64,000 bases of DNA, taken from Candidatus Latescibacterota bacterium. GTDB taxonomy: Bacteria; Latescibacterota; UBA2968; GCA-2709665. The stretch is from positions 5,184,001 to 5,248,000 of the forward strand of contig OZ250150.1 in assembly GCA_965237675.1 (NCBI GenBank), in the 5' to 3' direction. Of the stretch, positions 40,730-57,894 are shown one piece after another. Position numbers and translations under genes: made by a program. The notes under the pieces are model-generated. The model did not search any database. It had not been told where the DNA came from and saw only the letters and a program-made list of their open reading frames with translations. Each line of letters begins with the position of its first letter. Position 1 is the stretch's first letter.

Positions 40730-41313
40730 GGGAACGGCTCTTCAGGTATGGATTCGACGATTGGAATGAGTATGGCGTTGCTCCCGGCGCGGAGAGCGGA
40801 ATCCAGCGCTTTGATGTCGGACGAGTCGAGGACGATGCCACCGGTCTGAGCGGGTACGTGAAATCCGTGCGGCTGGATGAGCAGGGTAGGAGAAAAATAA
40901 AGCCTGGAACGACCGTGGGGCCCCTCAATTAGCCGACCGCTGAAGTCGAGCGGCAAACGGCGGCCTCGAAGCCTGACTCCGGCGTTTCCGGGTTCGGCGC
41001 TCACCGGGGCGAGCCTGGCGATCATTTTGAGTTGTAAAGACGACCGGCTCAACCCTCCCGTGAGACGGTATTTCTGAATTGCGCAGGATCTCAACATGTG
41101 CGCACCGGCTTTCAGATAGAGCTTGCCGGCCGGCAGATCGATTACGAGGTAGTAGGCGTCGGGATCCTCCCTGACAAACCGAACTTCGAGTGCCAGGGCC
41201 TGATTTCTGTTTCGGAGAACCTGCTCGAGCGAGTCCGGCACACTCTGGCCGCATGCCGCGGGGGGCGGTATGAACCAGACGACCGGGATGGAAATGATGA
41301 CACGCAGGATCAA
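40726..41313 (-). CDS. L,D-transpeptidase-like protein lacking the catalytic Cys
   Basis: TTG start overlaps the upstream TGA. YYLVIDL...KLYL and QTGGIVLDSSDI align with the neighbouring LDT (ITHGCIRLNDADL). Confidence 0.65.
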   Translation of the reverse strand: MILRVIISIPVVWFIPPPAACGQSVPDSLEQVLRNRNQALALEVRFVREDPDAYYLVIDLPAGKLYLKAGAHMLRSCAIQKYRLTGGLSRSSLQLKMIARLAPVSAEPGNAGVRLRGRRLPLDFSGRLIEGPHGRSRLYFSPTLLIQPHGFHVPAQTGGIVLDSSDIKALDSALRAGSNAILIPIVESIPEEPFP

Positions 41314-41936
41314 TAGATGTATACGCGACTTCCTTTCTGCGCCCGAGCGAATGTCGCCTCGAGGTCGGCGTCGTTCAGACGAATACACCCGTGCGTGATG
41401 TTGCGGCCAATGAGATTCGGGTAGAGGTTTCCGTGAATTTCGTAACCGTCGCCCAACTCCAGCGCATATTTGCCCAGCGTGACCGGATCCAGGCGGTCGA
41501 AATCCCAAGGCAGTACCGGGGCCTCCCGACCTGCCTCCACAAAAGCCCATTCCGGTTTCTTCCATATCGGATTCACCACTTTACGCCGGATTTCGAATCG
41601 CCCTTTCGGTGTATTGAACCGCCACAGTTTCCGTTTGTCGCTCAATAGAATCTTGCCGCTGCCGGTTGCGCAGACCGCTTCCTCCAACAGCCGATTCCGG
41701 TGCCATACCTGGAGGCGGTTGTGTACCGTGTCGATTACAAAATGCGGCCTTTCGTCCCTCAACCGGTTGAGGGCGGCCTCCAGCGTTTCGATGTCCGCTG
41801 AAAGATGATCTGCCGTGGAGGATCGGGCCGGGGTGCCGGTCGGCTCGGAACCCGCGCTCTGACTGTCCGGAGGGCGAGTCCGGCACGCGGCGGCGACCAC
41901 CACCGGCAGAAGCAGAACAACAATAAACCGGCGCAT
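41310..41936 (-). CDS. L,D-transpeptidase (YkuD family) lipoprotein
   Basis: Lipobox AAAC; CATGSG, TPKG, P.W..P.W, EIHG, THGCIRL. Confidence 0.92.
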   Translation of the reverse strand: MRRFIVVLLLPVVVAAACRTRPPDSQSAGSEPTGTPARSSTADHLSADIETLEAALNRLRDERPHFVIDTVHNRLQVWHRNRLLEEAVCATGSGKILLSDKRKLWRFNTPKGRFEIRRKVVNPIWKKPEWAFVEAGREAPVLPWDFDRLDPVTLGKYALELGDGYEIHGNLYPNLIGRNITHGCIRLNDADLEATFARAQKGSRVYIY

Positions 41937-43213: not shown

Positions 43214-43450
43214 ATGGGTTTTGAAAACGAACTGGGTGTGGCCGCGCTTTCGGTGTTGGGGGCGCTACTGTTTCGATGGTTTGGCGTTCCCAAACGCTGG
43301 ACGCCGGTGACGCCGTTGGTTTTGTCGATCCTGATCGTCGCGTTGTTCGGAGAGGTTGATACGGTGAAGGCGGTGTTCACGAGCGGACTGGTCAGCGGGC
43401 TATTCGCCAATGGATTCCTATTCCTTATTCCGAACACCCGGAATGGATGA
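43214..43450 (+). CDS. Small membrane protein (holin-like pattern)
   Basis: 78 aa with three hydrophobic segments and a GGGAG RBS. Its 3' end overlaps the convergent TPR gene by 33 bp. Confidence 0.55.
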   Translation: MGFENELGVAALSVLGALLFRWFGVPKRWTPVTPLVLSILIVALFGEVDTVKAVFTSGLVSGLFANGFLFLIPNTRNG

Positions 43451-44629
43451 TCTTATTCTAAGACGATTCAGATCATCCAGAAGTTGTTTGGCGTCGTACA
43501 CAACGGTATTCTTGGAAATGCGTTTTTCCTTGCGCACGTAGGTTTCAAGCGCTTCACGGGCGCGATCGTGGCGACCGCCTCGAAAGCAGGCCAAACCCAG
43601 GTAATAGTAGACGTCTGTCTGCGTGGAATCGACCTTAACCGCGTTTTGTAGATGCTTGATGGCATTCGCATAATTACGGACATTGAAGTATGACACCCCC
43701 AATTTGAGATACGCCGAAGCGTCGTCGGCCCCGGTGGCAATCGCTTTTCGGTAGGTATCGACGGCGGATTTGAAATCCCCTCGGTTAAATGCCAGGTTGC
43801 CGAGACTCACATACGCCTCGCCGTATTGAGGATCGATCTCCAGAGCTTTCAGGTAGGCGGCCCGCGCCTTCCTGAGATTCCCTTCCTGAGCATAGGCCAT
43901 ACCCAGATTTCTGTAGATGTAACGGCGTTCGGTGTCTTCGGTCTGGAACCGAAGCGCCATTTCGTAGATTTCAATGGCCTTGTCGGTCTTTCCGGTGTAG
44001 ATGTAAGTAAGGCCCAGATTAAGATAGGCGTCGGTGTACTTGTCATTGAGCTTGACCGCCCGTCTGTATTCCGCGATAGCCTGATCGGCGTATCCTTTAT
44101 GGTAATAGGCCAGGCCCATCAGGTTACGTACAAATGCCGACCCGGGTTTGAGTTCCAGAGCGGTTTTATAATGCGAAAGGGCCGAATCATAGTTCCCTTT
44201 GTGGTAGTATGTTCTGCCCAGGTCGACCCGAGCCTGGAAAAGGTTCGGATTGGCTCGTATCGACCGTTTCAGATAAACAAGCCGCTCGTCCGGGCGGGTT
44301 AACAGGCGCCCATACAGGTAGAGACCGACGGCGGCCCCCGGCCGGGCGCGCAGGCGCCTCAAATATTCGGCAAGCAACTCCCGGCGGCGGTCGGTCTTGA
44401 GCATCAGGTCCTGGTAGTGAATATTTGCCTGGATATCGTCGGGCTTGCTTCTGACCAGACGCCGAAAATGAGCCAGTTCGGCTTCATTCGGAACGCCTTC
44501 GGCGCCCCGGACAGGGCTTCCGAACCATCCAATGACAAGAGGCACAATAAGGATCAGACGGGTTAACACTGGCACTCCAGCGGTCAATCGTCGAAGTTGG
44601 GATTTCGTCGGCGCTGGATCGGTTCGCAT
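43418..44629 (-). CDS. TPR-repeat protein with N-terminal signal/TM segment
   Basis: About eight TPR motifs (e.g. AYLNLGLTY, AYVSLGNLAF). Start position uncertain. Confidence 0.88.
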   Translation of the reverse strand: MRTDPAPTKSQLRRLTAGVPVLTRLILIVPLVIGWFGSPVRGAEGVPNEAELAHFRRLVRSKPDDIQANIHYQDLMLKTDRRRELLAEYLRRLRARPGAAVGLYLYGRLLTRPDERLVYLKRSIRANPNLFQARVDLGRTYYHKGNYDSALSHYKTALELKPGSAFVRNLMGLAYYHKGYADQAIAEYRRAVKLNDKYTDAYLNLGLTYIYTGKTDKAIEIYEMALRFQTEDTERRYIYRNLGMAYAQEGNLRKARAAYLKALEIDPQYGEAYVSLGNLAFNRGDFKSAVDTYRKAIATGADDASAYLKLGVSYFNVRNYANAIKHLQNAVKVDSTQTDVYYYLGLACFRGGRHDRAREALETYVRKEKRISKNTVVYDAKQLLDDLNRLRIRSSIPGVRNKE

Positions 44630-45007: not shown

Positions 45008-45868
45008 CTATCTGTCTTTCTTCAGGAGAACGCTCAGAGGTCGTTTGGGTTTGTAGAGATAGATCACGTCGGCCGGGTCGAGCATCGTATTGAAAATGGC
45101 AATTTCATCAATCTTGCCGGAATAGGCCGTCGTGTAATGGTTGAATCGAATGGCCATTTCGTCCAGTTTCCACGTAATATCGCGCCGGATTTTCCTCTTC
45201 CGGCCTATTTCTTCACCGTCGACGAAGAGCGCGTATTCGGCATCGGTGTTGCCGCTGTTGATATTGGACCACGTTACAACAATATGGTGCCATTGATCGG
45301 ATTTCCAGTTGAGCTTCTCATACCGGATCGTCCATTGTTTCACCTGGTCTTCCCGTACTGCCCCCGTTTTGTCGGGGTAACAGCCGAAGCGAAGGGCGCT
45401 GGGAGGACGATCCTTCTGGCTTTTTTCGAAGTCTACGAAGATGACCGCATCATCCCATTTTTTTCCTATGGAGAAGGGCTCGGGGAACTTCTCCGTGAAG
45501 TCGCTATTGGGATCGACGCTTAACCAGAAAGAGACCCCGCCGGACCAAGGTTTACCCGCTGCGTAGGGAAAGTTGTCCTGGGCCGAATAGCTGAGATAGG
45601 TCGCGTCGTTCGCGAACGAAACGAAGCCGTCCTCCTTGCCGCCGGTGAACTCATGCCGGGGCGGGCTGCTCGTCTCCATTTCAGCAACCGTGCCTTTCTT
45701 TTTTGTTAGCGCCTCGAAACGAGATCTGTCGTCAAAATTCGCAAAAAAAAGGACGTTCGCCGCGAGTTTTTCCTCAATTTTTTTCTCAGGGCCACCACAG
45801 CCGGAAAAACCGAGCACGGCAACCGGAATTGTGATCAGGTGCAAAAGGCGGGAAGAGCACCGTGACAT
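45008..45868 (-). CDS. LamG-like jellyroll lipoprotein
   Basis: Lipobox FSGC; SFWL, WHHIVVTW, LFVDG, GKIDEIAIFN. Confidence 0.82.
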   Translation of the reverse strand: MSRCSSRLLHLITIPVAVLGFSGCGGPEKKIEEKLAANVLFFANFDDRSRFEALTKKKGTVAEMETSSPPRHEFTGGKEDGFVSFANDATYLSYSAQDNFPYAAGKPWSGGVSFWLSVDPNSDFTEKFPEPFSIGKKWDDAVIFVDFEKSQKDRPPSALRFGCYPDKTGAVREDQVKQWTIRYEKLNWKSDQWHHIVVTWSNINSGNTDAEYALFVDGEEIGRKRKIRRDITWKLDEMAIRFNHYTTAYSGKIDEIAIFNTMLDPADVIYLYKPKRPLSVLLKKDR

Positions 45869-46054
45869 AAGGCACATCTCCTTTCAGGAGAGGTTGAGAT
45901 CGATGAGCACGTTAAACCGGCCGTAACAGCGAATCACCAATATAAAAAAAGCCTGTTCGGGCGCAAGCGTTTTTCTCGTTTCCGGTCCGCAGACAAGGAC
46001 GGAAGGAGCCGCGAAGGCCAGAAAAATCAGATGATTAGAGCAACAGAAAATGCC

Positions 46055-46326: not shown

Positions 46327-49300
46327 ATGCTGCGTAAACTTGGCGGCGCGATTCTATGGCTGATAGCGATTTTTATGCTTTCGTCGGTTACCGTGTTCAA
46401 CCCGGGCCAGGTAACCGACTTTTTCATTCGGGTCTTCAATATCAAGCCCAGCGTTCCGCAGGTGCGTGTGGAGAAACCCTCGCAGAGAGACGAAGGCATT
46501 CAGGAATTCGCCGATCTGATCTCAGAGTCGGGTCTCCAGGAGACCGTATCCGCTCTGGCCGGAATGGAATCCCGGGTGCCAGGGTATCCGGGGCATAGAG
46601 AGGCGTTCGAATACGTCAAGGGTCGTTTCGAGGCCCTGGGCCTTGAGGATATCACGGTAGAGGAACATCACGTTACCGTACCGATCGACAAAGGGGCGAC
46701 TCTGGAGGTCTTGGCCACCAAAGACACCATCCTGCTTTACGGGCTATGGCCCAATCATGTTCAAACGCCTTCCCTGCCGGAAGGCGGCGTTGCAGGCGCG
46801 CTGATCGACGCGGGGGATGGTTCTTTCAGAGCCTTGAATTCGAAGCCGGTGGCGAATAGCATCGCGTTGATGGAATTCGATTCCGGCCAGAACTATCTCA
46901 ACCCTCGCATGTTAGGCGCGCACGCCATCATATTTTACGACAACGGCGGCGTGAGCAGGGGTCAAGCCCTGGAGAAACTCCTCCAGGTACCGGTGGACGT
47001 GCCCAGGTTCTGGGTGGAGAAAGACGATGCTGGCCGACTGGCTGCACTTGCAAAGTCCAACGCCACACGCGTGAAATTGACTTCCAAGATGGACTGGGAG
47101 AAAGTGCCCACGTGGAACATATACGCCACCCTGCCTGGCTCGGACGATTTTGTCACGGAGCGTGAAGAGCGGAAATGGAAGGACGAGATGGTTGTCTTGA
47201 GTTCGTTCTACGACGCCGCTTCAGTTGTGCCCGCCCTGGCTCCGGGTGCGGAGAATGCGACCGGGCTGGCCGCCCTTCTGGAAGTCGCCGCGGCATTAAA
47301 AGACAAATCGTGGCTGGAATCCTCCTCCGCACTGCCGCAACTGCCGCGGTACACTGTGAAATTTCTGGTAACGGGCGCGCACTTCCAGGGTTTGGCCGGT
47401 GTCAACGACTTTCTGTTCAGGCATTCCCGGGAAAGCGACCACTTCCGGGATTTGATTCCGGACGAACAGAAGATCGACTTCCGACTATTCATCGGATTTG
47501 ACCTATCTAGCGAAACGGACCAGATCGCCAGTTTCTCACACGGTACGTTTATCAACCCGAACTGGTCAACCAACAATTACGAAAACAACCTGCTGGCACC
47601 CTATGCGAAGAAATTCAATAAATACCTGGCCAAAATCTATCCTGGCGAAGAACGTCACATCGACGCCGTTGCACCACCGAAACGAACCTGGAAGAACTAC
47701 ATGCCCGTCCGGCTGGGATTCGATAGCGAGGCGGTCAAATTCGTTGGCAAGGAGGGGATTACGCTGGCCACCCCTTCCACAACGCGCGAAAGGGTGGATA
47801 CGCCCGTGGATCGCGCGGAATACGTCAATTTTGTCAACCTGGCCCGGCAAACGCGAACGGCAACGGGCATGCTTCTGAAAGCGCTGGAAGATCCTGAGTT
47901 TTTCCGGGTGTCCAAACTCAAGCTGCAGGACCTTGGCCACAGCATGAAAGGGCGTATTCTCTGGTTTGAACGAGATGCCGATTTTGCGATTCCACGTGTG
48001 CCCGTGTCGGGGGCTATCGTCACATATCAGCAACCCGGGCCGGTGGCCAGTTGTGGTGGGGTCCGTACGTTGATTGTGGACAAAACCACGGAAGGCCCCA
48101 GATACGTGAGCGACCGTGCCGTGGGGCCCGAATTCGGCACAAAAGAGGAAGTGGAGGCCGCCGGTCGTTTCCATTTCAACATCATGCGCAACCGGTTTAC
48201 GAATCAGATATTTGCGTATGAAATTGACGACCATGGCCGAATCATATCGGCGCCGGATCTGGGCACGGAAGGCGAGGAGAAATTTCCCACCAGGCAGGGC
48301 TACGGATGGTGGGAGAACGAGATGCTGGCGGTCCTCTTCAAGTGCCGTTCTCTCAGCGTGTTTGAAATCATCGATTCCAGTTACCTTTCGGCGCTCGATT
48401 TCATGACCGTGCTGAATGCGGGCGATTCCCAGCCGCTGGAATACGGTTATTACTATATAGAAAACCAGAGCATCAAAGAAGGCGACGTCACGCGGGCGGC
48501 GGTCGCATTTACCGCGATAAACCCTACAACCGGCAGTCCCGATCCCATCAAGATTCTGATGAGCACAGGCCTGTTCGGGGTGAAATACCTGCTGATCAAC
48601 GCCCCTGAGGAGTTTCTGGAAAAACCCGTGGACAAGTGGGACGTGGACGATGACTTGCTGGAGCAGTCCCGCGGCGCCGGTTATCCTCCGGGTGTGATCC
48701 TGTACCCTTCATACAAAGCCGCGAAGGATATGTGGGTGATCGACGACATCCGGATGAAGCAACTTGCCCAGTACGGTATAACGAATGCACGGTTGGAAAA
48801 GCTGCATACGCATGCGGCCGAAGCGCTGAAACGGGCACGGGAGAATCTGGCCAACGACGACTACGAAGGGTTTATCGCCGCGTCGCGGGAAGCATGGGGT
48901 CTGGAAGCCCGCGGCTACCCGGAAGTGATGTCAACCGCAAACGACACGGTGCGTGGAATTATCTTTTATTTCATTCTACTGCTGCCCTTTTCCTTTTTCT
49001 GCGAGCGGTTGCTTTTCGGATTTCCGGATGTCACCCGGCGTCTGGCAGGCTTTGCGGGAATCTTCGTGCTGTTTTTCATAATCCTTCGTTACGTACATCC
49101 GGCCTTCAAACTGAGCAGCACGCCCTATATCATCTTCCTGGCTTTCGTAATCATGGCGCTTGGCGGCATTGCGATGTTCATTGTCGTTTCCAAGTTCGGC
49201 GAAGAGGTCCGGAAGATGAAGCAGGCCTCGGCAGGTACGTACGAGGCGGACGTGGGTCGGTTGAGCGCGACGGCTGCGTCAATTATTCTGGGCATTTCCA

Positions 49301-51123
49301 ATTTACGAAAACGTCCTCTCCGAACCGGACTGACGGCCATCACCCTCACATTGCTCACGTTTACCGCGCTGTCATTCACATCGGTACAGACGTCCATCAA
49401 ATTTTATCGATTGCCGCGAGACAATCAACCGCCGTATCCGGGAGGCCTTGTCCGGGATCGTTCCTGGAGAGGATTGCAGGAATCCGTGCTCCAGTACCTG
49501 ACCAGTGCATTTAAAGGCCGTGCGACAATCGTTCCCCGTGCATGGTACCTGTCTCAGGTTCGCGGTGAACGGGCCTACGTCAATTTTTCCCGGATCACCG
49601 AGCAGACCTCGTACCTTGGCTCGAGAGACACCTATGTCGATTTCGACGTTGGCATAACCACGGGAAAAGACAGCTTTGTGAACGGGTTGCTGGGGCTTAC
49701 CGCGGAAGAGCCGGAAATTACCGGTATCGACCGTTATCTGATGAGCGGGCGGTGGTTTAATCCAGGTGAGACGGATGTGTGCATTCTACCGAACGACCTG
49801 GCGGAATTGGTGGGCATTTTTCCTGAAGACGCCGGTACCGCCAAGGTCGAGATGCTGGGTGGTGTTTTCACGGTCATCGGTATTATGGACTCGGAGGGTT
49901 TCAACAAGTACAAAGATATGGACGACGAGAAGCTGACGCCCGTGGATACGGTCAAGGAGAAGGACGACCTGGCTGATGCTCAGGACCAGGATCCGCGGGT
50001 CGTGGCGGCGGCGCCCATTGAGACGTTTACGCATCTGGAATCGACCAATGTCATGATTCTGCCTTATGATTACGTGCGGAATATTGGAGGCACCCTGAAT
50101 TCCGTCGCAGTAGCGAACTTTGTGGACTCACGGGGCAACGCGAAGACGAACTTCCTGCCGGATGTCGAAGAGTTCATGACCCGCGTATCCCTGACCATGT
50201 TCGTGGGTCACGAGAACAAGGTCACGGTGTACAGTTCCATCGGATCCACGTCTCTTTCCGGGTTGGGCACACTGTTTATCCCGATCCTGATTGCTGCGCT
50301 GATCGTGTTGAATACGATGATGGGCTCCGTGTACGAACGGTTCAACGAAATTGGGATTTACTCCGCGGTGGGGCTGGCGCCCAACCACATTGCTGCGCTG
50401 TTTCTCGCGGAGGCGACGGTATTCGCCACGATCGGCGCCGTACTCGGGTATTTGATTGGACAGGTGCTGGTTCTTGTGCTATTTACCCAGGCACAGGCAC
50501 AGGGACAACTGCTCAGCCTGGAATTGAACTATTCTTCGTTGTCGGCCATTTCTTCCACGTTGATCGTAATGGCGACCGTGTTCCTTTCCACGCTGTATCC
50601 GGCGAAAAAAGCCGCCGATATGGCGGTTCCGGACGTAACGCGAAAGTGGGAATTTCCAGAACCCGACGGGGATAAATGGGTGTTTGATTTTCCGTTTACC
50701 GTTGGCGGCGCGGAAGTGTTGGGCATGTACACCTACCTGACTCGTGTCTTTGAATCCTACGGTGAAGGGTCCGTCGGCGACTTTGTGGCCGATTACGTCC
50801 GTTTTACCTCCGAGGACCTGGAGGGCGAACCCCAATATGAAATCAACCTGACGTGCTGGCTTGCGCCTTACGACCTGGGCATCAGCCAGGAAGTGGAATT
50901 GAGGGCGATACCAACCAGGGAATACAATATTTACAAAATTGTGGTCGTTATCAACCGGCTCAGCGGAGACGTGGCCTCGTGGAAACGAATCAACAGGGGC
51001 TTCCTAAACGTGCTCAGGAAACGATTCCTGGTGTGGCGTACCATTCCACCCGAGTTGAAACACCAGTATGCTGACGAGGGCAAACAGATTCTGGAAAACG
51101 CAGTGGAAGAGGTAAGTGTATAG
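46327..51123 (+). CDS. Giant membrane protein: degenerate M28 peptidase/PA domain plus MacB/FtsX-like permease
   Basis: SRVPGYPG and APGAENATG (M28-like); NLRKRPLRTGLT, GRWF, NTMMGSVYERFNEIGI..AVG, LYPAKKAA (FtsX). ATG 46327 follows a CAGGAG RBS. Confidence 0.85.
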   Translation: MLRKLGGAILWLIAIFMLSSVTVFNPGQVTDFFIRVFNIKPSVPQVRVEKPSQRDEGIQEFADLISESGLQETVSALAGMESRVPGYPGHREAFEYVKGRFEALGLEDITVEEHHVTVPIDKGATLEVLATKDTILLYGLWPNHVQTPSLPEGGVAGALIDAGDGSFRALNSKPVANSIALMEFDSGQNYLNPRMLGAHAIIFYDNGGVSRGQALEKLLQVPVDVPRFWVEKDDAGRLAALAKSNATRVKLTSKMDWEKVPTWNIYATLPGSDDFVTEREERKWKDEMVVLSSFYDAASVVPALAPGAENATGLAALLEVAAALKDKSWLESSSALPQLPRYTVKFLVTGAHFQGLAGVNDFLFRHSRESDHFRDLIPDEQKIDFRLFIGFDLSSETDQIASFSHGTFINPNWSTNNYENNLLAPYAKKFNKYLAKIYPGEERHIDAVAPPKRTWKNYMPVRLGFDSEAVKFVGKEGITLATPSTTRERVDTPVDRAEYVNFVNLARQTRTATGMLLKALEDPEFFRVSKLKLQDLGHSMKGRILWFERDADFAIPRVPVSGAIVTYQQPGPVASCGGVRTLIVDKTTEGPRYVSDRAVGPEFGTKEEVEAAGRFHFNIMRNRFTNQIFAYEIDDHGRIISAPDLGTEGEEKFPTRQGYGWWENEMLAVLFKCRSLSVFEIIDSSYLSALDFMTVLNAGDSQPLEYGYYYIENQSIKEGDVTRAAVAFTAINPTTGSPDPIKILMSTGLFGVKYLLINAPEEFLEKPVDKWDVDDDLLEQSRGAGYPPGVILYPSYKAAKDMWVIDDIRMKQLAQYGITNARLEKLHTHAAEALKRARENLANDDYEGFIAASREAWGLEARGYPEVMSTANDTVRGIIFYFILLLPFSFFCERLLFGFPDVTRRLAGFAGIFVLFFIILRYVHPAFKLSSTPYIIFLAFVIMALGGIAMFIVVSKFGEEVRKMKQASAGTYEADVGRLSATAASIILGISNLRKRPLRTGLTAITLTLLTFTALSFTSVQTSIKFYRLPRDNQPPYPGGLVRDRSWRGLQESVLQYLTSAFKGRATIVPRAWYLSQVRGERAYVNFSRITEQTSYLGSRDTYVDFDVGITTGKDSFVNGLLGLTAEEPEITGIDRYLMSGRWFNPGETDVCILPNDLAELVGIFPEDAGTAKVEMLGGVFTVIGIMDSEGFNKYKDMDDEKLTPVDTVKEKDDLADAQDQDPRVVAAAPIETFTHLESTNVMILPYDYVRNIGGTLNSVAVANFVDSRGNAKTNFLPDVEEFMTRVSLTMFVGHENKVTVYSSIGSTSLSGLGTLFIPILIAALIVLNTMMGSVYERFNEIGIYSAVGLAPNHIAALFLAEATVFATIGAVLGYLIGQVLVLVLFTQAQAQGQLLSLELNYSSLSAISSTLIVMATVFLSTLYPAKKAADMAVPDVTRKWEFPEPDGDKWVFDFPFTVGGAEVLGMYTYLTRVFESYGEGSVGDFVADYVRFTSEDLEGEPQYEINLTCWLAPYDLGISQEVELRAIPTREYNIYKIVVVINRLSGDVASWKRINRGFLNVLRKRFLVWRTIPPELKHQYADEGKQILENAVEEVSV

Positions 51124-51205
51124 AGACGTAGTGTGCCGAGAGTTGCATAACAGCCCGCGGGGTTGCCACCCGCAACCCGTGACTCGCTGCTCCCAATGAG
51201 GAGGG

Positions 51206-53260
51206 GTGGTTTTGGCAATTGAACCCAAGGACAATATAGAAGAGCAGGAACAGTACGAAAATATCATGCCGGTGGATGCGCCGTTTGAAGATGGTTTCAA
51301 TATGAAAACCCTGTGGGCGACGCTATTTGTGGGTCTGGTGATGCTGCCCGGCGCGATCTACCTTGGGCTGGTCACCGGCCAGAACATGGCGGGTGCGTCC
51401 GAATGGGTGACCATCATCCTCTTTCTGGAGATTGCCAAGCGGTCCTTCGTGCGTCTGAAGACGCAGGAGGTCCTGGTGATCTACTGGGTGGCGGGTGGAT
51501 TGCTGGGGGTAGGGGTGAGACTGGGCAGTGCGGCGCTGGTGTATGGGGGGCCGTTCGGCGGACTGATCTGGGATCAATACTTAATCCAATCCCCGGCGGC
51601 GAGGGGACTCGCGGATTTCATCCCGGACTGGGTGGTACCCAGGATCAGCGAGCATCCGGAAATCTACGCCGAACGGACGTTTTTGCACACCGCGTGGTTG
51701 AAGCCGATTGGCATCCTCCTTGCGTTAACCCTGTTAAGCAATACCGCGAGACTTTCGCTGGGATACGTGATGTTTCGCATTACGAGCGATATCGAACGGT
51801 TGCCGTTTCCACTGGCGCCGGTCCAGGCCCGCGGCGCCACCGCGCTGGCCGAGACGTCGGCCAAGCAGGAGGGCTGGAGGTGGCGGGTTTTCAGTACCGG
51901 CGCGTGCATCGGCCTTGTCTGGGGTCTGCTCTACGTTGTTGTGCCCACGCTTTCCAGCATATTCCTGACCGATACGGTCCAGATTCTGCCCATACCCTGG
52001 ATCGATTTTACGGAGCAAATCAAAACCCTCTTGCCGGCGGCGCTGTTTGGAATCGCAACCGACCTGGGCCATCTAATTGTCGGTTTCGTACTGCCGTTCT
52101 GGGTGGTTATCGGGTCGTTTGCCGGCGCCGTACTGGGAAACCTCGTTGTCAACCCGTTTCTTTACAAATACGAAATCCTGGACCGCTGGTCTGCGGGCAT
52201 GACGGCGATCCCGACTTCAATCTCCAACCAGTTCGACTTCTGGTTGAGTTTTGGTATCGGCACTTCGTTTATAATCGCGTTCACCGGATTCTACCAGGTA
52301 TTTCGGGTGCTTATGGAACAACGTCGTCAGAAACAGCAGACAGGGCATCATACATCGGGTATCGACCTCGAGGACCTGCCGGAAGGCCGCTCGGATATGA
52401 AGATGATATACCCGATTCTGTTCTGGGGCGCCGCCACGCTCGGCTTTATCGTGCTATGCCAGATGCTGGTTCCGGAATTCCATTGGGGTTGGGTTGTGTT
52501 CTTCGGACTCATCTATACGCCGATTTCGTCTTATATCGGCGCCCGAATGATTGGCCTGACTGGAAGCCCATACGGGGCGAGTATTCCCTATTTGCGTGAA
52601 GCGGGGATTCTTCTGTCAGGATACAAGGGTGTGGCGGTCTGGTTTGCGCCACTTCCTCTGCACGACCACGGGCTGGCCGTGCCGATCTATAAGCAGATGG
52701 AATTGACAAAGACGAAGTTTGTCAGTTACGTGAAATTGACCGCCGTGACCATGGTCGTGATCTTCATTTTCAGCTTTATTTTCTGGGAATTCATCTGGCG
52801 ACTGGGGCCCATACCTTCGTCCAGCTATTACTATGTGCAGACGTTCTGGCCGTACGACGCCACGATGACGACAATGTGGTTGAAGTCGACGATGCCGGAT
52901 CTCGAAGGACAGGGGACGGTCGGGGTCGAACTCCTAAAGGATATCATCAAGCCGGAAATCATCGGCGCGGGATTCGCGGTGGGTGGTCTCATGTATCTGA
53001 TTCTCGCCGTATTGAAGGCGCCGACACTGTTCTTTTTCGGTTTTGTGGGCTCACTTGCCACGTGGCCCCATTTTGTAATTCTGCAGTTTGCCGGCGCGCT
53101 TCTTGGACGCTTCTACTTCGCCAAGCGTTTCGGCGAATCCAAGTGGCGTGCATACGCGCCCATTCTGCTGGCCGGATATTACTGTGGCATGGGACTCATC
53201 GGGATGACATCCGTTTCGGTTGTGTTAATTTCGAAGGCCGTTTCCCAGGTTGTCTTCTAA
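51206..53260 (+). CDS. OPT-superfamily-like polytopic transporter
   Basis: Many TM helices; FEDGFNMKTLW, YLGLVTG, ERLPFP, PYLREA. GAGGAGG RBS. Confidence 0.78.
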   Translation: MVLAIEPKDNIEEQEQYENIMPVDAPFEDGFNMKTLWATLFVGLVMLPGAIYLGLVTGQNMAGASEWVTIILFLEIAKRSFVRLKTQEVLVIYWVAGGLLGVGVRLGSAALVYGGPFGGLIWDQYLIQSPAARGLADFIPDWVVPRISEHPEIYAERTFLHTAWLKPIGILLALTLLSNTARLSLGYVMFRITSDIERLPFPLAPVQARGATALAETSAKQEGWRWRVFSTGACIGLVWGLLYVVVPTLSSIFLTDTVQILPIPWIDFTEQIKTLLPAALFGIATDLGHLIVGFVLPFWVVIGSFAGAVLGNLVVNPFLYKYEILDRWSAGMTAIPTSISNQFDFWLSFGIGTSFIIAFTGFYQVFRVLMEQRRQKQQTGHHTSGIDLEDLPEGRSDMKMIYPILFWGAATLGFIVLCQMLVPEFHWGWVVFFGLIYTPISSYIGARMIGLTGSPYGASIPYLREAGILLSGYKGVAVWFAPLPLHDHGLAVPIYKQMELTKTKFVSYVKLTAVTMVVIFIFSFIFWEFIWRLGPIPSSSYYYVQTFWPYDATMTTMWLKSTMPDLEGQGTVGVELLKDIIKPEIIGAGFAVGGLMYLILAVLKAPTLFFFGFVGSLATWPHFVILQFAGALLGRFYFAKRFGESKWRAYAPILLAGYYCGMGLIGMTSVSVVLISKAVSQVVF

Positions 53261-53394
53261 TCCGGAAAACAGCATTCCATCATGGAACGCCGCCTGGATT
53301 CCGACTGTCTAATGAAATTACCGAAGACTGCGAATCCGGGCGGTTTTATGTCCGGCCCAAACGACGGGCGGTTTTTATAAAAAGGGAGGTTTCG

Positions 53395-53856
53395 ATGAAA
53401 CGGAGTGAAAGGATCATGAGACTCGCGCTCATCACCTGTATTGTGTTGGGATTTGCCATCGAGGCGGCGGCACAGCCCGACGGCGGGGGCGGGCGCGGAC
53501 GGGGAAGACGCGGGGGCGCGGCGCGGCTCAGAATGATGTTGCCCGTAGAGCAGACGCTGAGTTTTCTGGCTTTTGACGGCAGGATAGCGTTGAAAGACAA
53601 TCAGCTGCTCGAGATCCGGAACGCACTCAAGGAGATTCACGGCAAGCGGGGCGAATTGGAAAAAGAGATGCAGGATGGGGCCGATAGACAGCAAATTTCG
53701 GAGAAACTCGGGCGGCTTCGGAGCACAATGTTCGATAAGGTCAAAGTGGTGCTGGACGACAGTCAGGATAAGGTTCTGGATGGTTATCTGGAGAGGATGC
53801 GGCGAGGGTTTCAACGTGGACGCGGAGGCGGCGGGCGGCGGGGCGGCGGGGTATGA
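53395..53856 (+). CDS. Periplasmic helical protein (Spy/CpxP-like) with Gly/Arg-rich ends
   Basis: Signal peptide ending EAAAQ; LKDNQ and LDDSQ motifs resembling LTxxQ; GGGAGG RBS. Confidence 0.7.
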   Translation: MKRSERIMRLALITCIVLGFAIEAAAQPDGGGGRGRGRRGGAARLRMMLPVEQTLSFLAFDGRIALKDNQLLEIRNALKEIHGKRGELEKEMQDGADRQQISEKLGRLRSTMFDKVKVVLDDSQDKVLDGYLERMRRGFQRGRGGGGRRGGGV

Positions 53857-53959
53857 CGTGATCGTCAAGGACCACGATGCGATGATATGGCGGCTCCCCG
53901 CGGCGGGTTCGCCATATCTTGTTGAGCCGCCGACACCCGCGAGAATGCGAATTTTCCGG

Positions 53960-53988
53960 TTGACAGATTCCGGGGCGCCATTTACTTT
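53960..53988 (+). promoter_or_regulatory. Sigma70-type promoter
   Basis: TTGACA-N17-TACTTT. Confidence 0.5.
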
Positions 53989-54270
53989 GATTGATTGCGG
54001 GAGCATTTCGCCGCGACCAGAACCCGATTCTCGCTTGCGGACTCGCCCCTCCAAGGCAGACCGGGGGATGTTTATTCCCCACCGGTCTTCCCCTACTCCT
54101 GCACACGCCCGGTACTTGAACTTGCTACGGGGCCGCAGGACGCACGAAGGAAGCGGGGCCAGTTCAACCGCGGCCATTGGACGACTGAAACACGCCGTCA
54201 ACCGCTCGTTTTTCCGCGGGTGCGTATTTCGGAAACGCAGCCGGTATAGAGCCTGAAGAAAAGAGGGCGA

Positions 54271-55656
54271 ATGAATTTCCTGGATGTCGGCGGACGGTTT
54301 GAAAAACCGTTCACCTTTGCCGTGGTGGGCGACACGCACTTTTTGCATCCAAAGTTCGGTCGGCAAGCAGGTGAAACCGGCGGTTCGTTTCGACCATTGC
54401 AGGTCGACCAGTACCTCGAGAGCGTGCATTATGTTCTTATGCCAATGATGGCGTCACTAAAGGAAATGTCGCCGGCTTTTGTGGTCATCACCGGAGATCT
54501 GGTGGAGGGGCACCAGGACGTCGAACTCTCCATTGACGAGATTAAGGAAGGACTGGATTTTTTCGAAGGATATGGGATTCCGCTGTTATTCGCGTGTGGA
54601 AACAGGGATCGAGTTGAAGCATTCGACGGCGTCGTTCGGCCATATCTCGCCCGTTGGCTCGGCAGGACACCCCGAGAACGTTATTTCTTCCTGGATGTTG
54701 CCGGTTGCCGGCTGGTTTTCCTCGACACGCCCACGTGGAAGAGGCGGGGTGCCCAGCGGGAGTGGTTGGAGCTTACGTTGGAAGGGCGGGAGGCTGCGGG
54801 AATAGATCGTACCTTTCTGTTTGGACACCATCCTGTCTGGCCGGTTGCAAGGGCCTTTTTTTCCGAAATAGATTTTCATCTCGATATTCCGGAAATTCTG
54901 GGGAAACATCCGGTAGACGCCTTTTTTTGTGGACATACCCACAACCAGAGCGTGTTGCTTCACCGGACGGACGGACGACCCGTTCTGCAATGTATGTGTG
55001 CGTCCATCGGCCTCTCCGGTGAGATTCCAACGCCGCTGGATCGGGTGCAAAACCTGTTACCGTATCCACAGGACGTCCTGGCCTGCTGGCCGGGCTATCT
55101 TGAGAATACGGCGCCAGGATGGTTTGTTGTCCATGTCAACCCAATCTCGGTCGAAGCGGCATGGCATCATCTGAATAGAGGTGTGGAGACCCGACTTGCG
55201 TGGCATCGCCCCGGAGACCTTTCGGCGTTCGAAAAAATGGAACACCCCCCCGATGCACATTTGATATACGACGACTTGAACCACATTCGTCGCGCCACCT
55301 TGAGGTTCTGCGGATGGCATGCTTTGCGTCCGGATAAGCAGGTTTTCCTCAATGGTGAGCCGGTTGGCAACCTGCCTCCCGCGAACGACTACGCGCCGAT
55401 CCGGATGGAGTTGCCCGCCCGATGCCTTGGGCATATGCGCATGGAGAATCGGATCGAGATCCGGGTTCCTCGTAACGAAGCATGCACGCTAGGCAATTTC
55501 GTACTGGAAGCGGTCTTGCCTGGTGAACGATTTGTACGGACCCGGCCCACAGGCGAGATTTTTACCTGGTCCGACCGGTGGGGCGCGTGGAACTCGACCT
55601 GGTTGCAGAGAATGAACCCCGGACGGTCAGCAGCCACATTGTTGTGTTTTCACTGA
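54271..55656 (+). CDS. Calcineurin-like metallophosphoesterase with C-terminal beta domain
   Basis: GDTH, TGDLV, GNRD (the usual GNHD has H to R), GHHP, CGHTHN. Confidence 0.85.
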   Translation: MNFLDVGGRFEKPFTFAVVGDTHFLHPKFGRQAGETGGSFRPLQVDQYLESVHYVLMPMMASLKEMSPAFVVITGDLVEGHQDVELSIDEIKEGLDFFEGYGIPLLFACGNRDRVEAFDGVVRPYLARWLGRTPRERYFFLDVAGCRLVFLDTPTWKRRGAQREWLELTLEGREAAGIDRTFLFGHHPVWPVARAFFSEIDFHLDIPEILGKHPVDAFFCGHTHNQSVLLHRTDGRPVLQCMCASIGLSGEIPTPLDRVQNLLPYPQDVLACWPGYLENTAPGWFVVHVNPISVEAAWHHLNRGVETRLAWHRPGDLSAFEKMEHPPDAHLIYDDLNHIRRATLRFCGWHALRPDKQVFLNGEPVGNLPPANDYAPIRMELPARCLGHMRMENRIEIRVPRNEACTLGNFVLEAVLPGERFVRTRPTGEIFTWSDRWGAWNSTWLQRMNPGRSAATLLCFH

Positions 55657-55815: not shown

Positions 55816-57894
55816 ATGAAAAAGCCACGATTTACAAATCGGTTGCTACACGAAACGAGCCCCTATCTGTTGCAACATGCGCACAACCCTGTGGACTGGT
55901 ATCCGTGGGGCGACGAAGCCTTTGATCTGGCGAGAGAATCGGATCGTCCCATTTTCCTGAGCGTCGGTTATTCGGCCTGCCACTGGTGCCATGTAATGGA
56001 AAGGGAGTCGTTCGAGAATGAGACCATTGCAGACGTGATGAATCGGTTCTTCATAAACGTTAAGGTTGACCGCGAAGAACGGCCCGATGTGGATGAAATC
56101 TATATGAATGCGGTTCAGATTATGACAGGCGCCGGCGGGTGGCCGATGAGCGTGTTTCTGACACCCGAAGGAACGCCGTTCTACGGCGGCACCTATTTCC
56201 CACCCGACAGCAGATATGGTCGACCGGGATTTCCCGACCTGCTGCGTTCCGTGGCCAGGCATTACCGCGAAAACAGGAACAAAGTAGGAGAGGCGGCCGA
56301 TCGGCTGATGGCAGGATTGAAACGGCTGTCCGAATTGCGAAACCTGGATGGAGAATTGACCGGGGCGCTGTTTTCCAACGGGTTTGCGCAGATTGCTCGC
56401 AATTTTGATGCGGAAAATGGAGGATTCGGATCGCAGCCGAAGTTTCCAAGCAGCATGAATCTATCGGTTTTTCTGCGAGAATTCGAGAAAACCGGAAATC
56501 GCAATGCACTGGATATGATACTGCTGACGCTGCGGAAGATGGCACACGGCGGGATATACGATCACCTGGGAGGCGGGTTTCATCGGTACTCGGTTGACCA
56601 TCGCTGGCTGGTCCCGCACTTCGAGAAGATGCTTTACGATAACGCCCTGTTGACAGGGGTCTATCTGGACGCTTTTCAACTTACCGGAGAACCACTGCTC
56701 CAACAGGTTGTACAGGAAACGCTGGGCTACGTGATGCGTGAGATGACCGATCCGCAGGGCGGGTTCTATTCTACTCAGGACGCGGACAGCGAAGGGAAGG
56801 AGGGGAAATTTTTCGTCTGGGATCAGGAGGAGGTGTACGCATTGTTGGGTGAAGAGGACGGGCCGCTGTTTTGCCGGCAATACGATGTGAGGCCGGAGGG
56901 CAATTTTGAACACGGCAAGAGTATTTTGAATATACCGGTGGCGGCACCGGAATTAGCCCGGTTCCTTGATGTGGATCTGACGGCGCTGCAAGCCGCGACT
57001 CGGCGCGGACGGGAGGTGTTGGCGGGCGTTCGGAACGGCAGGATCAAGCCGGATCGGGATGAGAAAATCCAGGTAAACTGGAACGGTCTCATGATCTCGG
57101 CATTTGCGCGTGCTTATCAGGTTCTCGGAAGATCCCGGTATCTGGAAACGGCGCAAAACGCGGCCGGGTTCATACTTCAACATATGCTGACGGAATCGGG
57201 GCGTCTGCTGCATGCGTACAAGGACGGACGAGCCCGTTTCGTAGGATACCACGACGATTACGCCTTTTTCTGCTGCGGTCTGCTCGACCTTTACGAGACC
57301 TCCTTCGATCCGGCCTGGCTGGATGCGGCGGAGACTCTCATGGAGACGATGCTCGACGAGTTCTGGGATCCTGAAGAGGGTGGTTTCTTTTTTACCGGTA
57401 AGTCGAACGAGGAACTGATCGTCCGTTCCAAGAATCCCTACGACAACGCGATCCCGTCCGGAAATTCGATGGCCGTGATGCTTTTAATGCGCCTGGGTAC
57501 GATTCTGGATCGGCCGGATCTGTGGAAGAAGGCGGAGCAAACGCTGAAGCTGTTCGAACCGATGCTCCGCGAGATGCCGTCCGGTTTCGGTCAGATGCTC
57601 TGCGGACTTGATTTCTTCTCCCGGCGTCCGGTGGAGGTCGTATTGGTCGGCGAACCGGACGACGCAGCCACGAAAACTCTTCTGAAGGCGGCAAATAGGC
57701 GCCTGCTTCCCAATCGGGTGATTGTGCTTGCGGATCCAGAGAAGACGGGGGATTTGTCACGGCGTATTCCACTTCTTTCCGGCAAGACGGCTGTGGATGG
57801 CAAACCCACCGCTTACGTATGCAGAGATTCCGTCTGTTCCGCACCGATAACGTCCGTTTCCCAACTGGATGCATTGTTGCAGGATTCGTCGTGA
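55816..57894 (+). CDS. Thioredoxin domain-containing protein YyaL/SSP411 family
   Basis: [50 protein letters not shown]. Confidence 0.94.

Follow-up and report, generated by a model that had tools for sequence, protein, structure and literature searches.

The stretch of DNA analysed here (the window) is 64,000 nucleotides long and comes from a Candidatus Latescibacterota bacterium (contig OZ250150.1, here C1, positions 5184001-5248000). Its subject genes are two consecutive genes on the forward strand (Table 1): a 'giant' gene, which encodes a protein of 1598 amino acids (aa) that joins a peptidase-like ectodomain to a permease-like membrane part, and famA, which encodes a polytopic membrane protein. 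We propose, with a probability of about 0.55, that the pair constitutes a cassette of an ATP-driven multi-component inner-membrane machine that captures an oligomeric substrate and whose motor is supplied in trans.

The giant open reading frame (ORF) begins with an ATG at position 46327, with AGGAG 6 nt 5' of this start, and runs for 1598 codons to a stop at 51123. Pfam recognized two domains in the product, Peptidase_M28 at residues 282-429 (E 3.9e-6, 27.2 bits, with a PF04389 cut-off of 21.3) and FtsX (PF02687) at residues 1317-1431 (E 5.5e-15, 55.9 bits, cut-off 25.5). NCBIfam models of MacB, LolC, LolE, FtsX and ADOP matched the same C-terminal stretch, all of them below threshold. A hydropathy scan placed an N-terminal transmembrane helix (TM1, residues 7-25) ahead of an ectodomain of ~850 aa that extends to residue ~875, followed by TM2-4 (877-955), TM5 (1002-1020), a periplasmic domain of ~290 aa, TM6-8 (1313-1423) and a tail of ~165 aa. 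An earlier interpretation made from the letters alone (the sequence-only reading) had described a 1598-aa protein with a PA/M28 ectodomain, a MacB/FtsX module and a C-terminal tail, and the ORF, the Pfam matches and the hydropathy profile bear this out. Its N-terminal anchor and FtsX part also stand; the scan corrects its membrane helices from about four to three and its tail from ~140 to ~165 aa.

Scoring of 7995 candidate sequences yielded 1189 giant homologues at E<=0.001, mostly from metagenome-assembled genomes of Latescibacterota and Gemmatimonadota. The 120 homologues listed were 49-93% identical to the giant, nearly all of them over 95-100% of its length, with a few shorter ones covering 61-84%. 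Given the number of homologues and the full length of nearly all those listed, the giant is, on this sequence evidence, a genuine protein and not a chance ORF. The famA gene runs from a GTG at 51206 to 53260 and its 684-aa product has ~11-13 hydrophobic segments. Exactly 82 bp separate the giant stop from this GTG, as had been read before, and no terminator-like site was found in this spacer.

Table 1. Features of the giant/famA locus, related elements elsewhere in the genome and the remodelled M28 site of the giant. Plain coordinates refer to the window; C1 coordinates refer to the contig.
Feature	Coordinates	Strand	Evidence or remark
Giant gene, 1598 aa	46327..51123	+	ORF/translation, Pfam M28 and FtsX, homologues
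TM1, N-terminal membrane anchor, residues 7-25	46345..46401	+	Hydropathy scan
PA + M28-fold head, residues ~51-530, remodelled metal site	46477..47916	+	AlphaFold2 model, Foldseek, VIA, PDB profile, site conservation
Beta-rich region and long helices into membrane, residues ~531-875	47917..48951	+	Confident AlphaFold2 model
TM2-4, three hydrophobic helices, residues 877-955	48955..49191	+	Hydropathy, conserved columns
MacB/LolC/FtsX-type module, residues 974-1435	49246..50631	+	Pfam, Foldseek, VIA, invariant columns
Family-specific C-terminal cytoplasmic tail, residues 1436-1598	50632..51120	+	Column identity, tail profile
Giant/famA spacer, 82 bp, GAGGAGG 5' of GTG	51124..51205	+	Sequence
Partner gene famA, 684 aa, polytopic	51206..53260	+	ORF, hydropathy, homologues
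Giant paralogue (L012)	C1:1742518-1747233		famB-giant-famB
Giant paralogue (L013)	C1:4305486-4310024		famB-giant
Giant paralogue (L014, par4)	C1:3144605-3149194		famB-giant-famA
Minimal FtsX (238 aa, ~40-aa outer loop) + MacB/FtsE-type ATPase N2	C1:5516253-5517769
PqqD-like + soluble 346-aa protein pair	C1:3792130-3793635
First His ligand, now F294			Y 52, F 34, H 14 of 100 homologues
Asp following first His, D296			100/100 homologues
Bridging Asp, now E309			99/100 homologues
Catalytic Glu, now H352			100/100 homologues
Ligand Glu, now F353			F 78, H 21, Y 1 of 100 homologues
Second Asp, D392			99/100 homologues
Last His, now D491			100/100 homologues; R487, T492, P493, D495 likewise 100/100

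The taxonomic distribution of the giants revealed that they were present in 47 of the 61 sampled genomes of the phylum, at one to five copies each, and in none of the 13 genomes of one family (f9). The genome studied here has four. The three that lie outside the window are 38-55% identical to the window giant and each has its own partner set. The partners are polytopic proteins of ~660-860 aa that adjoin the giants and fall into two types: famA, the type found in the window, which has no Pfam hit, and famB, which is composed of DUF6785 and DUF6784 (PF20581, PF20580). A DUF6785 gene lies, for example, upstream of giant paralogue 2, which is also flanked by genes for an FG-GAP/beta-propeller protein of 1238 aa and for a protein of 1063 aa that gave a weak heparinase II/III-like match.

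Linkage was surveyed in 80 related loci, each taken with as much as 10 kb of sequence to either side. Many of them are close kin and not independent, and 66 retain flanks of 2.5 kb or more in both directions. In 64 of these 66, famA and/or famB lies within 10 kb of the giant (famA in 48, famB in 40, both in 24), and in 49 a partner is the immediate same-strand neighbour. Frequent gene orders were giant-famA (24), giant-famB-famA (11), divergent famB/giant (8), famB-giant-famB (6) and famA-famB-giant (6). Among paralogue-type loci, 22 of 23 have famA and/or famB and 13 show the triad famB-giant-famA, while every other neighbour family is confined to 20 or fewer of the 80 loci. Partner type follows giant type: all 15 par4-type giants pair with a long famA of 804-862 aa, and pairwise distances of giants and famA proteins correlate with r = 0.94 over 67 pairs, a value that none of 999 permutations reached and to which shared species history contributes. 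Furthermore, the two can be joined in one chain. Protein P0480 (2120 aa) is a giant fused to a full-length famB, and its 56-member cluster holds further copies of 2120 aa and one of 2083 aa; among 143 tail proteins examined, there were two clear exceptions to a C-terminal position of the tail, P0480 being one of them, and in both a famB protein is fused after the tail. The sequence-only reading had expected linkage of the two genes across genomes, and the neighbourhood survey, together with this natural fusion, supports it. Conserved linkage, co-divergence and fusion make it very likely that the giant and famA/famB form a functional unit and, as far as sequence can tell, likely that they form a physical one. 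Since there are usually two partners per giant and the fusion occurs at the tail, these patterns suggest that partners may flank the ATP-binding cassette (ABC) core.

Several variants of the locus are recorded here as side observations. The clade of the window keeps only famA. A search for shorter, split forms returned 475 hits, mostly contig-end fragments labelled partial, and no clear split architecture; P0283 (716 aa, on a 1.54-Mb contig, 31 members) and P0330 (776 aa, on an 825-kb contig) match the FtsX and tail region at 54-62% identity and may be genuine split giants or frameshift products. Giants of 2777-3129 aa occur in metagenome-assembled genomes labelled Planctomycetota (L044:4640-13750, L048:6005-15394 and L076:6833-15166); each is followed by famA and carries ~1200 extra N-terminal residues with Big_5 Ig-like domains ahead of the PA/M28 head. 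In one subclade, a PPIC-type peptidyl-prolyl isomerase gene (Rotamase_2, SurA/PpiD-like, 548 aa, for example L066:915-2561) lies directly upstream of famA, a pattern present in 19 of the 80 loci.

The relationship of famA to oligopeptide transporters (OPT, PF03169) was approached by several routes, with mixed results. The famA family has 2230 homologues. The window protein itself matched no Pfam or NCBIfam model, including those of PF03169, DUF6785 and DUF6784, and a PDB sequence-profile comparison with solved structures gave no hits at E<=10. The four famB paralogues of this genome match DUF6785/DUF6784 at E ~1e-100, and famA aligns with famB (the DUF6785 family) over the N-terminal 200 columns (hhalign 93.5%, E 2.3e-7). 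When famA was aligned by hhalign with 12 genuine OPT proteins from genomes related to this one, the match was collinear over 494 columns at E 2.7e-4 with a probability of only 41%; the value for famB against OPT was 0.65%. The PF03169 model gave a single sub-threshold match in the whole genome, at 16.7 bits, on the par4 famB. Among 120 listed famA homologues, 8 carry a precomputed PF03169 hit and several are named 'peptide transporter' by NCBI, and three OPT-model hits of 35-36 bits (cut-off 25.8) directly adjoin giants in related genomes. Language-model neighbours of famA fall in 'peptide transporter' clusters with OPT in 15-33% of their members, and DUF6785 clusters overlap OPT. FamA is consequently best treated as a putative remote relative of the OPT superfamily. 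The earlier description of an OPT-like partner is partly supported by the collinear alignment, the DUF6785 kinship and the OPT hits beside giants in relatives, and is weakened by the missing PF03169 match of the window protein and the 41% alignment probability.

Two AlphaFold2 models of the giant, one of the ectodomain and one of the membrane part, were built from alignments of 25 diverse homologues. The ectodomain model (pLDDT 87.5, pTM 0.88) shows a PA-containing M28 fold at model residues ~26-505. Foldseek matched it to the aminopeptidase 2ek8 (E 3.6e-22) and then to Pseudomonas aeruginosa PaAP, BSAP/YwaD, the transferrin receptor and GCPII, and VIA-align to the Aeromonas aminopeptidase 1rtq (Z 28.9, 273 residues, 2.8 A), with single-zinc glutaminyl cyclases (Z 23.5-25.4) among the matches. 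The sequence profile agreed, reaching 2ek8 at E 1.5e-15 over 293 positions; nicalin was matched at E 2.4e-5 only at profile positions 263-327 (65 positions), and nicastrin was not among the matches listed by the PDB profile, Foldseek and VIA searches of the ectodomain. The 'nicastrin-like' label of the sequence-only reading is thus better replaced, the bacterial PA-containing M28 aminopeptidases being closer than nicalin. Residues ~531-875 are well modelled, but the M28 domain filled the lists of fold matches and so the fold of this region was barely probed.

The metal site was mapped by HMMER alignments to 2ek8, 6hc6 and 2anp, and residue frequencies were counted in 100 homologues (Table 1). 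The roles assigned to the canonical residues (His, Asp, Glu, Asp and His ligands and a catalytic Glu) are those that we take to hold in the Aeromonas and Streptomyces enzymes, and D392 was assigned to the second Asp by its motif position, which is our own reading. The four altered motifs reported earlier are present as quoted, SSFYD at 292-296, GAENATG at 307-313, GAHFQGL at 350-356 and RVDTPVD at 489-495. The M28 alpha/beta fold is there and, by sequence alignment, the canonical dinuclear-zinc ligand set is missing, which agrees with the earlier view of a degenerate site. Note however that the replacements D296, E309, H352, D392 and D491 are 99-100% conserved. This conservation means that the site is not simply degenerate, and a ligand-binding or single-metal pocket is possible. 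The pattern points to a site that was probably remodelled and then frozen rather than decayed, with a pocket that would serve as a functional binding site or as a metal site of altered type. Because the canonical catalytic ligands are not in place, the head is an M28-fold homologue that is better not classed with the M28 peptidases.

An alternative follows directly from this conservation, namely that the giant is a membrane-anchored, active exopeptidase in which E309, H352, D392 and D491 form an altered (e.g., single-metal) centre that frees small peptides or amino acids for an OPT-like importer, with the FtsX part serving mainly as an anchor. We consider it very unlikely. The near-invariance of the replacement residues would fit such an enzyme, as would the one-zinc glutaminyl cyclases of M28 fold among the structural matches and the return of His at position 294 in 14 and at position 353 in 21 of the 100 homologues, by which some subfamilies regain three possible ligands. 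However, F294 and F353 each remove one ligand from a canonical site and the catalytic Glu position is occupied by His. A mere anchor role would furthermore leave the conserved MacB-type periplasmic domain, the coupling loop and the tail, all described below, unexplained.

The model of the membrane part is of moderate quality (pLDDT 75.6, pTM 0.45). Foldseek matched it to MacB (5gko, E 9.3e-11), and VIA aligned model residues 115-576, which correspond to protein residues 974-1435, with HrtB (Z 18.5), YtrF (16.5), LolC (15.5), MacB (15.4) and FtsX (14.6). Within this module, an N-terminal helix is followed by TM5, a Porter/Sabre-like periplasmic domain and TM6-8, and the periplasmic part alone matches the MacB periplasmic domain 3ftj (VIA Z 12.4, 181 aa, 3.7 A). 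The giant thus has the two hallmarks of type VII ABC permeases, an FtsX domain above the Pfam cut-off and, in this moderate model, a four-helix unit with a Porter/Sabre periplasmic domain, and the MacB-type base recognized earlier by eye is supported by Pfam, Foldseek and VIA alike. A cytoplasmic loop of the FtsX domain, E-R-x-x-E-I-G at 1337-1343, is invariant across paralogues that are only 38% identical overall.

TM2-4 contain the invariant residues E893, R894 and H924-P-A-F927 and lie outside the MacB-type structural matches, all of which start at model residue 113 or later in the VIA comparison. A tandem permease with two FtsX halves, of the kind represented by ADOP, BceB or YbbP, was entertained and dropped, as hhalign gave TM2-4 against TM6-8 a probability of 0.1%, equal to the reversed control. 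Pfam finds one FtsX stretch only, and the 1+3 / 1+3 helix pattern is the sole hint of a second half. With TM2-4 uncovered by structural matches and dissimilar to the FtsX domain, the giant has one recognizable FtsX-type unit, not two.

The tail adopts a beta-alpha-beta4-alpha2 fold in the AlphaFold2 model and has a mean column identity of 66%. Its fold matches are weak (helix-grip/KA1/Bet v 1/START/Aha1-type, Z 8-9.6), near the level of common arrangements, and serve as a lead only. The PDB sequence profile returned nothing but designed Kelch-like SAKe proteins, none with a passing stretch, and we regard these matches as spurious; a search of the ESM Atlas gave no usable match. A profile of the tail nevertheless delimits the family well, finding 1561 cluster representatives (50% identity) at E<=0.001 among 1.84 billion. 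Among the 150 listed, the tail is at the C-terminal end of proteins or fragments of ~1000-3050 aa, with the exception of the two fusions and a few short C-terminal extensions.

A type VII permease would be expected to have a cognate ATPase of MacB/LolD/FtsE type, and the absence of one from the window, as had been claimed, holds: none of the 57 ABC_tran matches of the genome falls within it. For the machine as a whole the claim is probably wrong, given that candidate ATPases N1 and N2, the latter with a minimal FtsX, are encoded elsewhere, that this minimal FtsX and a 346-aa protein follow the giants in their distribution across genomes, and that N2, the minimal FtsX and two putative accessory genes cluster with the giant in other families. 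N1 is an orphan ATPase of MacB/LolD/FtsE type (262 aa) located 0.8 kb upstream of the paralogue-4 famB-giant-famA cluster. It lies 0.6-0.8 kb from the par4 cluster in four genomes (L014, L095, L096, L097; this genome, two congeners and one of a sister family), had orthologues at least 71% identical in 26 of the 47 giant-bearing genomes and in none of the 14 others, and had no permease gene beside it in any of the 7 genomes whose N1 surroundings were inspected. Its closest paralogue, N2 (61% identity), was the immediate neighbour of a minimal FtsX wherever both genes occurred among the loci retrieved, which was in 10 loci from 7 families of the phylum (L114-L119, L127, L128, L130). Across loci this FtsX is 216-249 aa long with an outer loop of only ~40 residues. 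It is single-copy and present in 43 of the 47 giant-bearing genomes and in 1 of the 14 without giants, the exception being a genome that is 57% complete, and one clear orthologue was found in each of three giant-bearing genomes labelled Planctomycetota or Handelsmanbacteria.

Two further proteins are possible accessories. A soluble 346-aa protein, paired with a PqqD-like protein in this genome, is single-copy in 44 of the 47 giant-bearing genomes and occurs in 1 of the 14 others. Compact clusters with every part on one strand occur in families f6, f8 and f11, and their order is famB-TPR-giant-famA-294aa-PqqD-like-minimal FtsX-ATPase in f8 and f11; the 346-aa/PqqD-like pair of this genome is homologous to the 294-aa and PqqD-like genes of these clusters, and in f3 homologues of both follow famA. 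The PqqD-like match is below the NCBIfam cut-off (32.2 vs 80 bits). The shared distribution and the compact clusters of giant, minimal FtsX, ATPase and accessories favour a single machine, as a reading of gene content and gene order.

The pair of minimal FtsX and N2 was at first read simply as FtsEX, because an S41 C-terminal processing protease (PDZ plus a CtpB-like N-terminal domain; C1:5517816-5519492, or L115:6816-8492 on the minus strand) lies immediately upstream of it, and division-type FtsEX genes adjoin such S41 CtpB-like proteases in some bacteria. This reading was downgraded after considering the NCBIfam cut-offs, the co-distribution and the compact clusters. Both proteins fall below every FtsE/FtsX/LolCDE cut-off of NCBIfam, which cannot tell these apart. 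The pair could be ordinary FtsEX, or the protease could belong to the system.

If the pair were an unrelated FtsEX, the giant could be a non-motor 'beta subunit', in the manner of nicastrin and nicalin, that recruits substrate for, or stabilizes, a proton-driven OPT-like transporter and keeps only the fold of FtsX. The protease beside the minimal FtsX pair fits a division-type FtsEX, OPT transporters are generally regarded as proton-driven, and the C-terminus, which is short in MacB-type proteins, is extended in the giant by a cytoplasmic tail specific to the family; the absence of an adjacent ATPase at the giant loci, quantified below, would also be explained. Nonetheless, the invariance of the E-R-x-x-E-I-G loop would be puzzling if it met no conserved partner in the cytoplasm, and the ~40-aa outer loop of the minimal FtsX is too small for the domain by which, as we understand it, division FtsX binds hydrolase activators. 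The minimal FtsX/ATPase pair shares a same-strand cluster with the giant in three families, and N1 adjoins paralogue 4. On balance we regard a beta subunit as unlikely.

Several observations weigh against an ATP-driven machine with OPT-like partners. An ORF for a nucleotide-binding domain is adjacent to the giant in 0 of the 80 survey loci, and lies within 10 kb in only 11 of the 80 and in 5 of 23 other loci; the accessory genes come within 10 kb of a giant in only 1 of the 80. The S41 CtpB-like protease recurs beside the minimal FtsX/ATPase genes in L127 and L128 (f3). The co-distribution of the minimal FtsX and the 346-aa protein with giants is largely close to a single evolutionary event, since the absences rest largely on one clade (f9, 0/13) and kin are not independent. 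On the side of the partner, no member of the famA family (0 of 22) matched PF03169 even at E<=1, and the low probability of the OPT alignment counts in the same direction. The probability of about 0.55 given above takes these points into account.

From the observed domain architecture, folds, linkage, fusion, co-distribution and cassette co-divergence, we infer physical assembly, use of the ATPase, direction and substrate along the following lines. The giant would be the permease subunit of a type VII ABC system of the MacB/LolCE/FtsX class, with its outer domain expanded to a PA/M28 head that has a conserved pocket, and would work with the adjacent polytopic protein of the OPT superfamily, probably in a physical complex. 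Its FtsX module would provide one half of the ABC core and the minimal FtsX the other half, as in LolC/LolE, and the conserved cytoplasmic loops would be the docking sites for two copies of the ATPase (N2, possibly alongside N1). The PqqD-like and soluble 346-aa proteins may act as cytoplasmic accessories, and one motor would serve the four giant/partner cassettes of this genome. Movement driven by ATP would be passed to the periplasmic domain and the M28-like head, the pocket of which would hold an oligomer end. By this mechanotransmission the machine would pass the captured substrate, an oligomer such as a peptide or glycopeptide, to the OPT-like permease or would gate that permease. The path through the membrane would be formed by one or more OPT-like proteins in complex with the giant.

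Regarding direction, we rate import above export, given that a genome has several cassettes and that conserved neighbours with biosynthetic roles are lacking. The converse would be an export or envelope-biogenesis machine that moves a peptide-like or lipid-linked product outward, the PqqD-like protein recognizing it and the M28-like head trimming it or handing it over. Such export stays a live rival owing to the PqqD-like protein and because type VII systems, as far as they are known, all work outward: those characterized (MacB, LolCDE, HrtBA, BceAB) are understood to act outward or on the outer leaflet, and PqqD/RRE-like domains to bind precursors of ribosomally synthesized and post-translationally modified peptides. 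The TPR protein of the compact clusters and the isomerase gene beside famA in 19 loci would also be at home in export. As a whole, however, we judge it distinctly unlikely. No precursor-peptide or biosynthetic genes are conserved beside the cassette, the PqqD-like hit is sub-threshold, and uptake accords better with genomes that hold as many as five cassettes, in a phylum regarded as polymer-degrading.

Upstream of the giant and divergent from it lie, on the minus strand, a LamG/concanavalin-like protein (289 aa, 45008-45877) whose conservation is limited to close relatives (20 of the 80 loci), a TPR protein (403 aa, 43418-44629) and a YkuD L,D-transpeptidase (41310-41936). An ORF of 390 aa with no Pfam hit (53257-54429, minus) is convergent with famA and overlaps its stop by 4 bp. 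Further downstream, on the plus strand, are a calcineurin-like metallophosphoesterase (461 aa, 54271-55656) and a DUF255 thioredoxin-like protein of DsbH type (692 aa, 55816-57894) with a six-hairpin glycosidase-like region at its C-terminus, both syntenic only in close relatives. No tRNA or tmRNA genes were found in the 64-kb window, and the GC skew changes sign near its 32-kb position.

Among known systems, the giant system appears to work most like a type VII ABC mechanotransducer (MacB, LolCDE, FtsEX, HrtBA, YtrEF, YbbAP, BceAB), with which it shares the MacB-type unit at residues 974-1435 and the conserved E-R-x-x-E-I-G loop. The proposed arrangement, in which one large and one small FtsX subunit share a LolD/FtsE-like ATPase, recalls LolC/LolE/LolD in particular. 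Unlike these systems, the giant adds an ectodomain of ~850 aa, three TM helices in front of the unit and a cytoplasmic tail of ~165 aa, its ATPase is not encoded adjacently in most genomes, and OPT-superfamily permeases are its obligate genomic partners, at times within one chain. To our knowledge, and from a literature search, no known type VII system has OPT-superfamily partners.

The head shares its fold, including the inserted PA domain, with M28 aminopeptidases (Aneurinibacillus AM-1 2ek8, Bacillus subtilis YwaD/BSAP 6hc6 and Aeromonas 1rtq) and, as in the M28B receptors TfR and GCPII, it is preceded by an N-terminal anchor and followed by helices. It differs from the aminopeptidases in its ligands (His to Phe, bridging Asp to Glu, Glu-Glu to His-Phe and last His to Asp) and in being covalently part of a polytopic permease. 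Nicastrin and nicalin likewise use an M28-fold ectodomain without a canonical metal site in the service of a polytopic membrane complex, but the pocket residues of the giant are strictly conserved rather than lost, and topology and partners are unrelated. As for OPT/Yellow-Stripe-like transporters (PF03169, TC 2.A.67), famA is collinear with them although the window protein misses the Pfam models; known OPTs are generally considered stand-alone secondary transporters, whereas these partners are tied to a giant ABC-type permease. A full-text literature search, from which subscription journals were largely outside, yielded no functional characterization of the giant architecture and no paper on DUF6785/DUF6784, in keeping with the earlier suggestion that the system is undescribed.

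We venture a more specific proposal only tentatively, and think it somewhat doubtful in full: a hybrid transporter in which a MacB-type mechanotransducer (giant, minimal FtsX and FtsE-like ATPase, with the PqqD-like accessory) is built onto one or two OPT-fold permeases, with a motor shared in trans, for modular oligomer uptake in uncultured sediment and soil bacteria. In such a hybrid, a permease with the fold of a secondary transporter would be loaded or gated by a primary-active motor together with a receptor head of peptidase origin. If a hybrid of motor and OPT fold is real, the system comes close to a new class.

Should the ATP-driven machine proposed here prove true, type VII mechanotransmission would include a large unstudied branch (the 1561 tail clusters, with 1-5 giant copies per genome) whose partners are permeases of the OPT superfamily and not periplasmic adaptors, lipoproteins or hydrolase activators. 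It would represent a new coupling of ATP hydrolysis to a secondary-transporter fold and would give a context to DUF6785/DUF6784. The strictly conserved, remodelled M28 pocket lends itself well to testing how a peptidase fold becomes a receptor or an altered catalyst. Overall, the machine would bear on how abundant uncultured phyla, Latescibacterota and their relatives, take up or handle oligomers.

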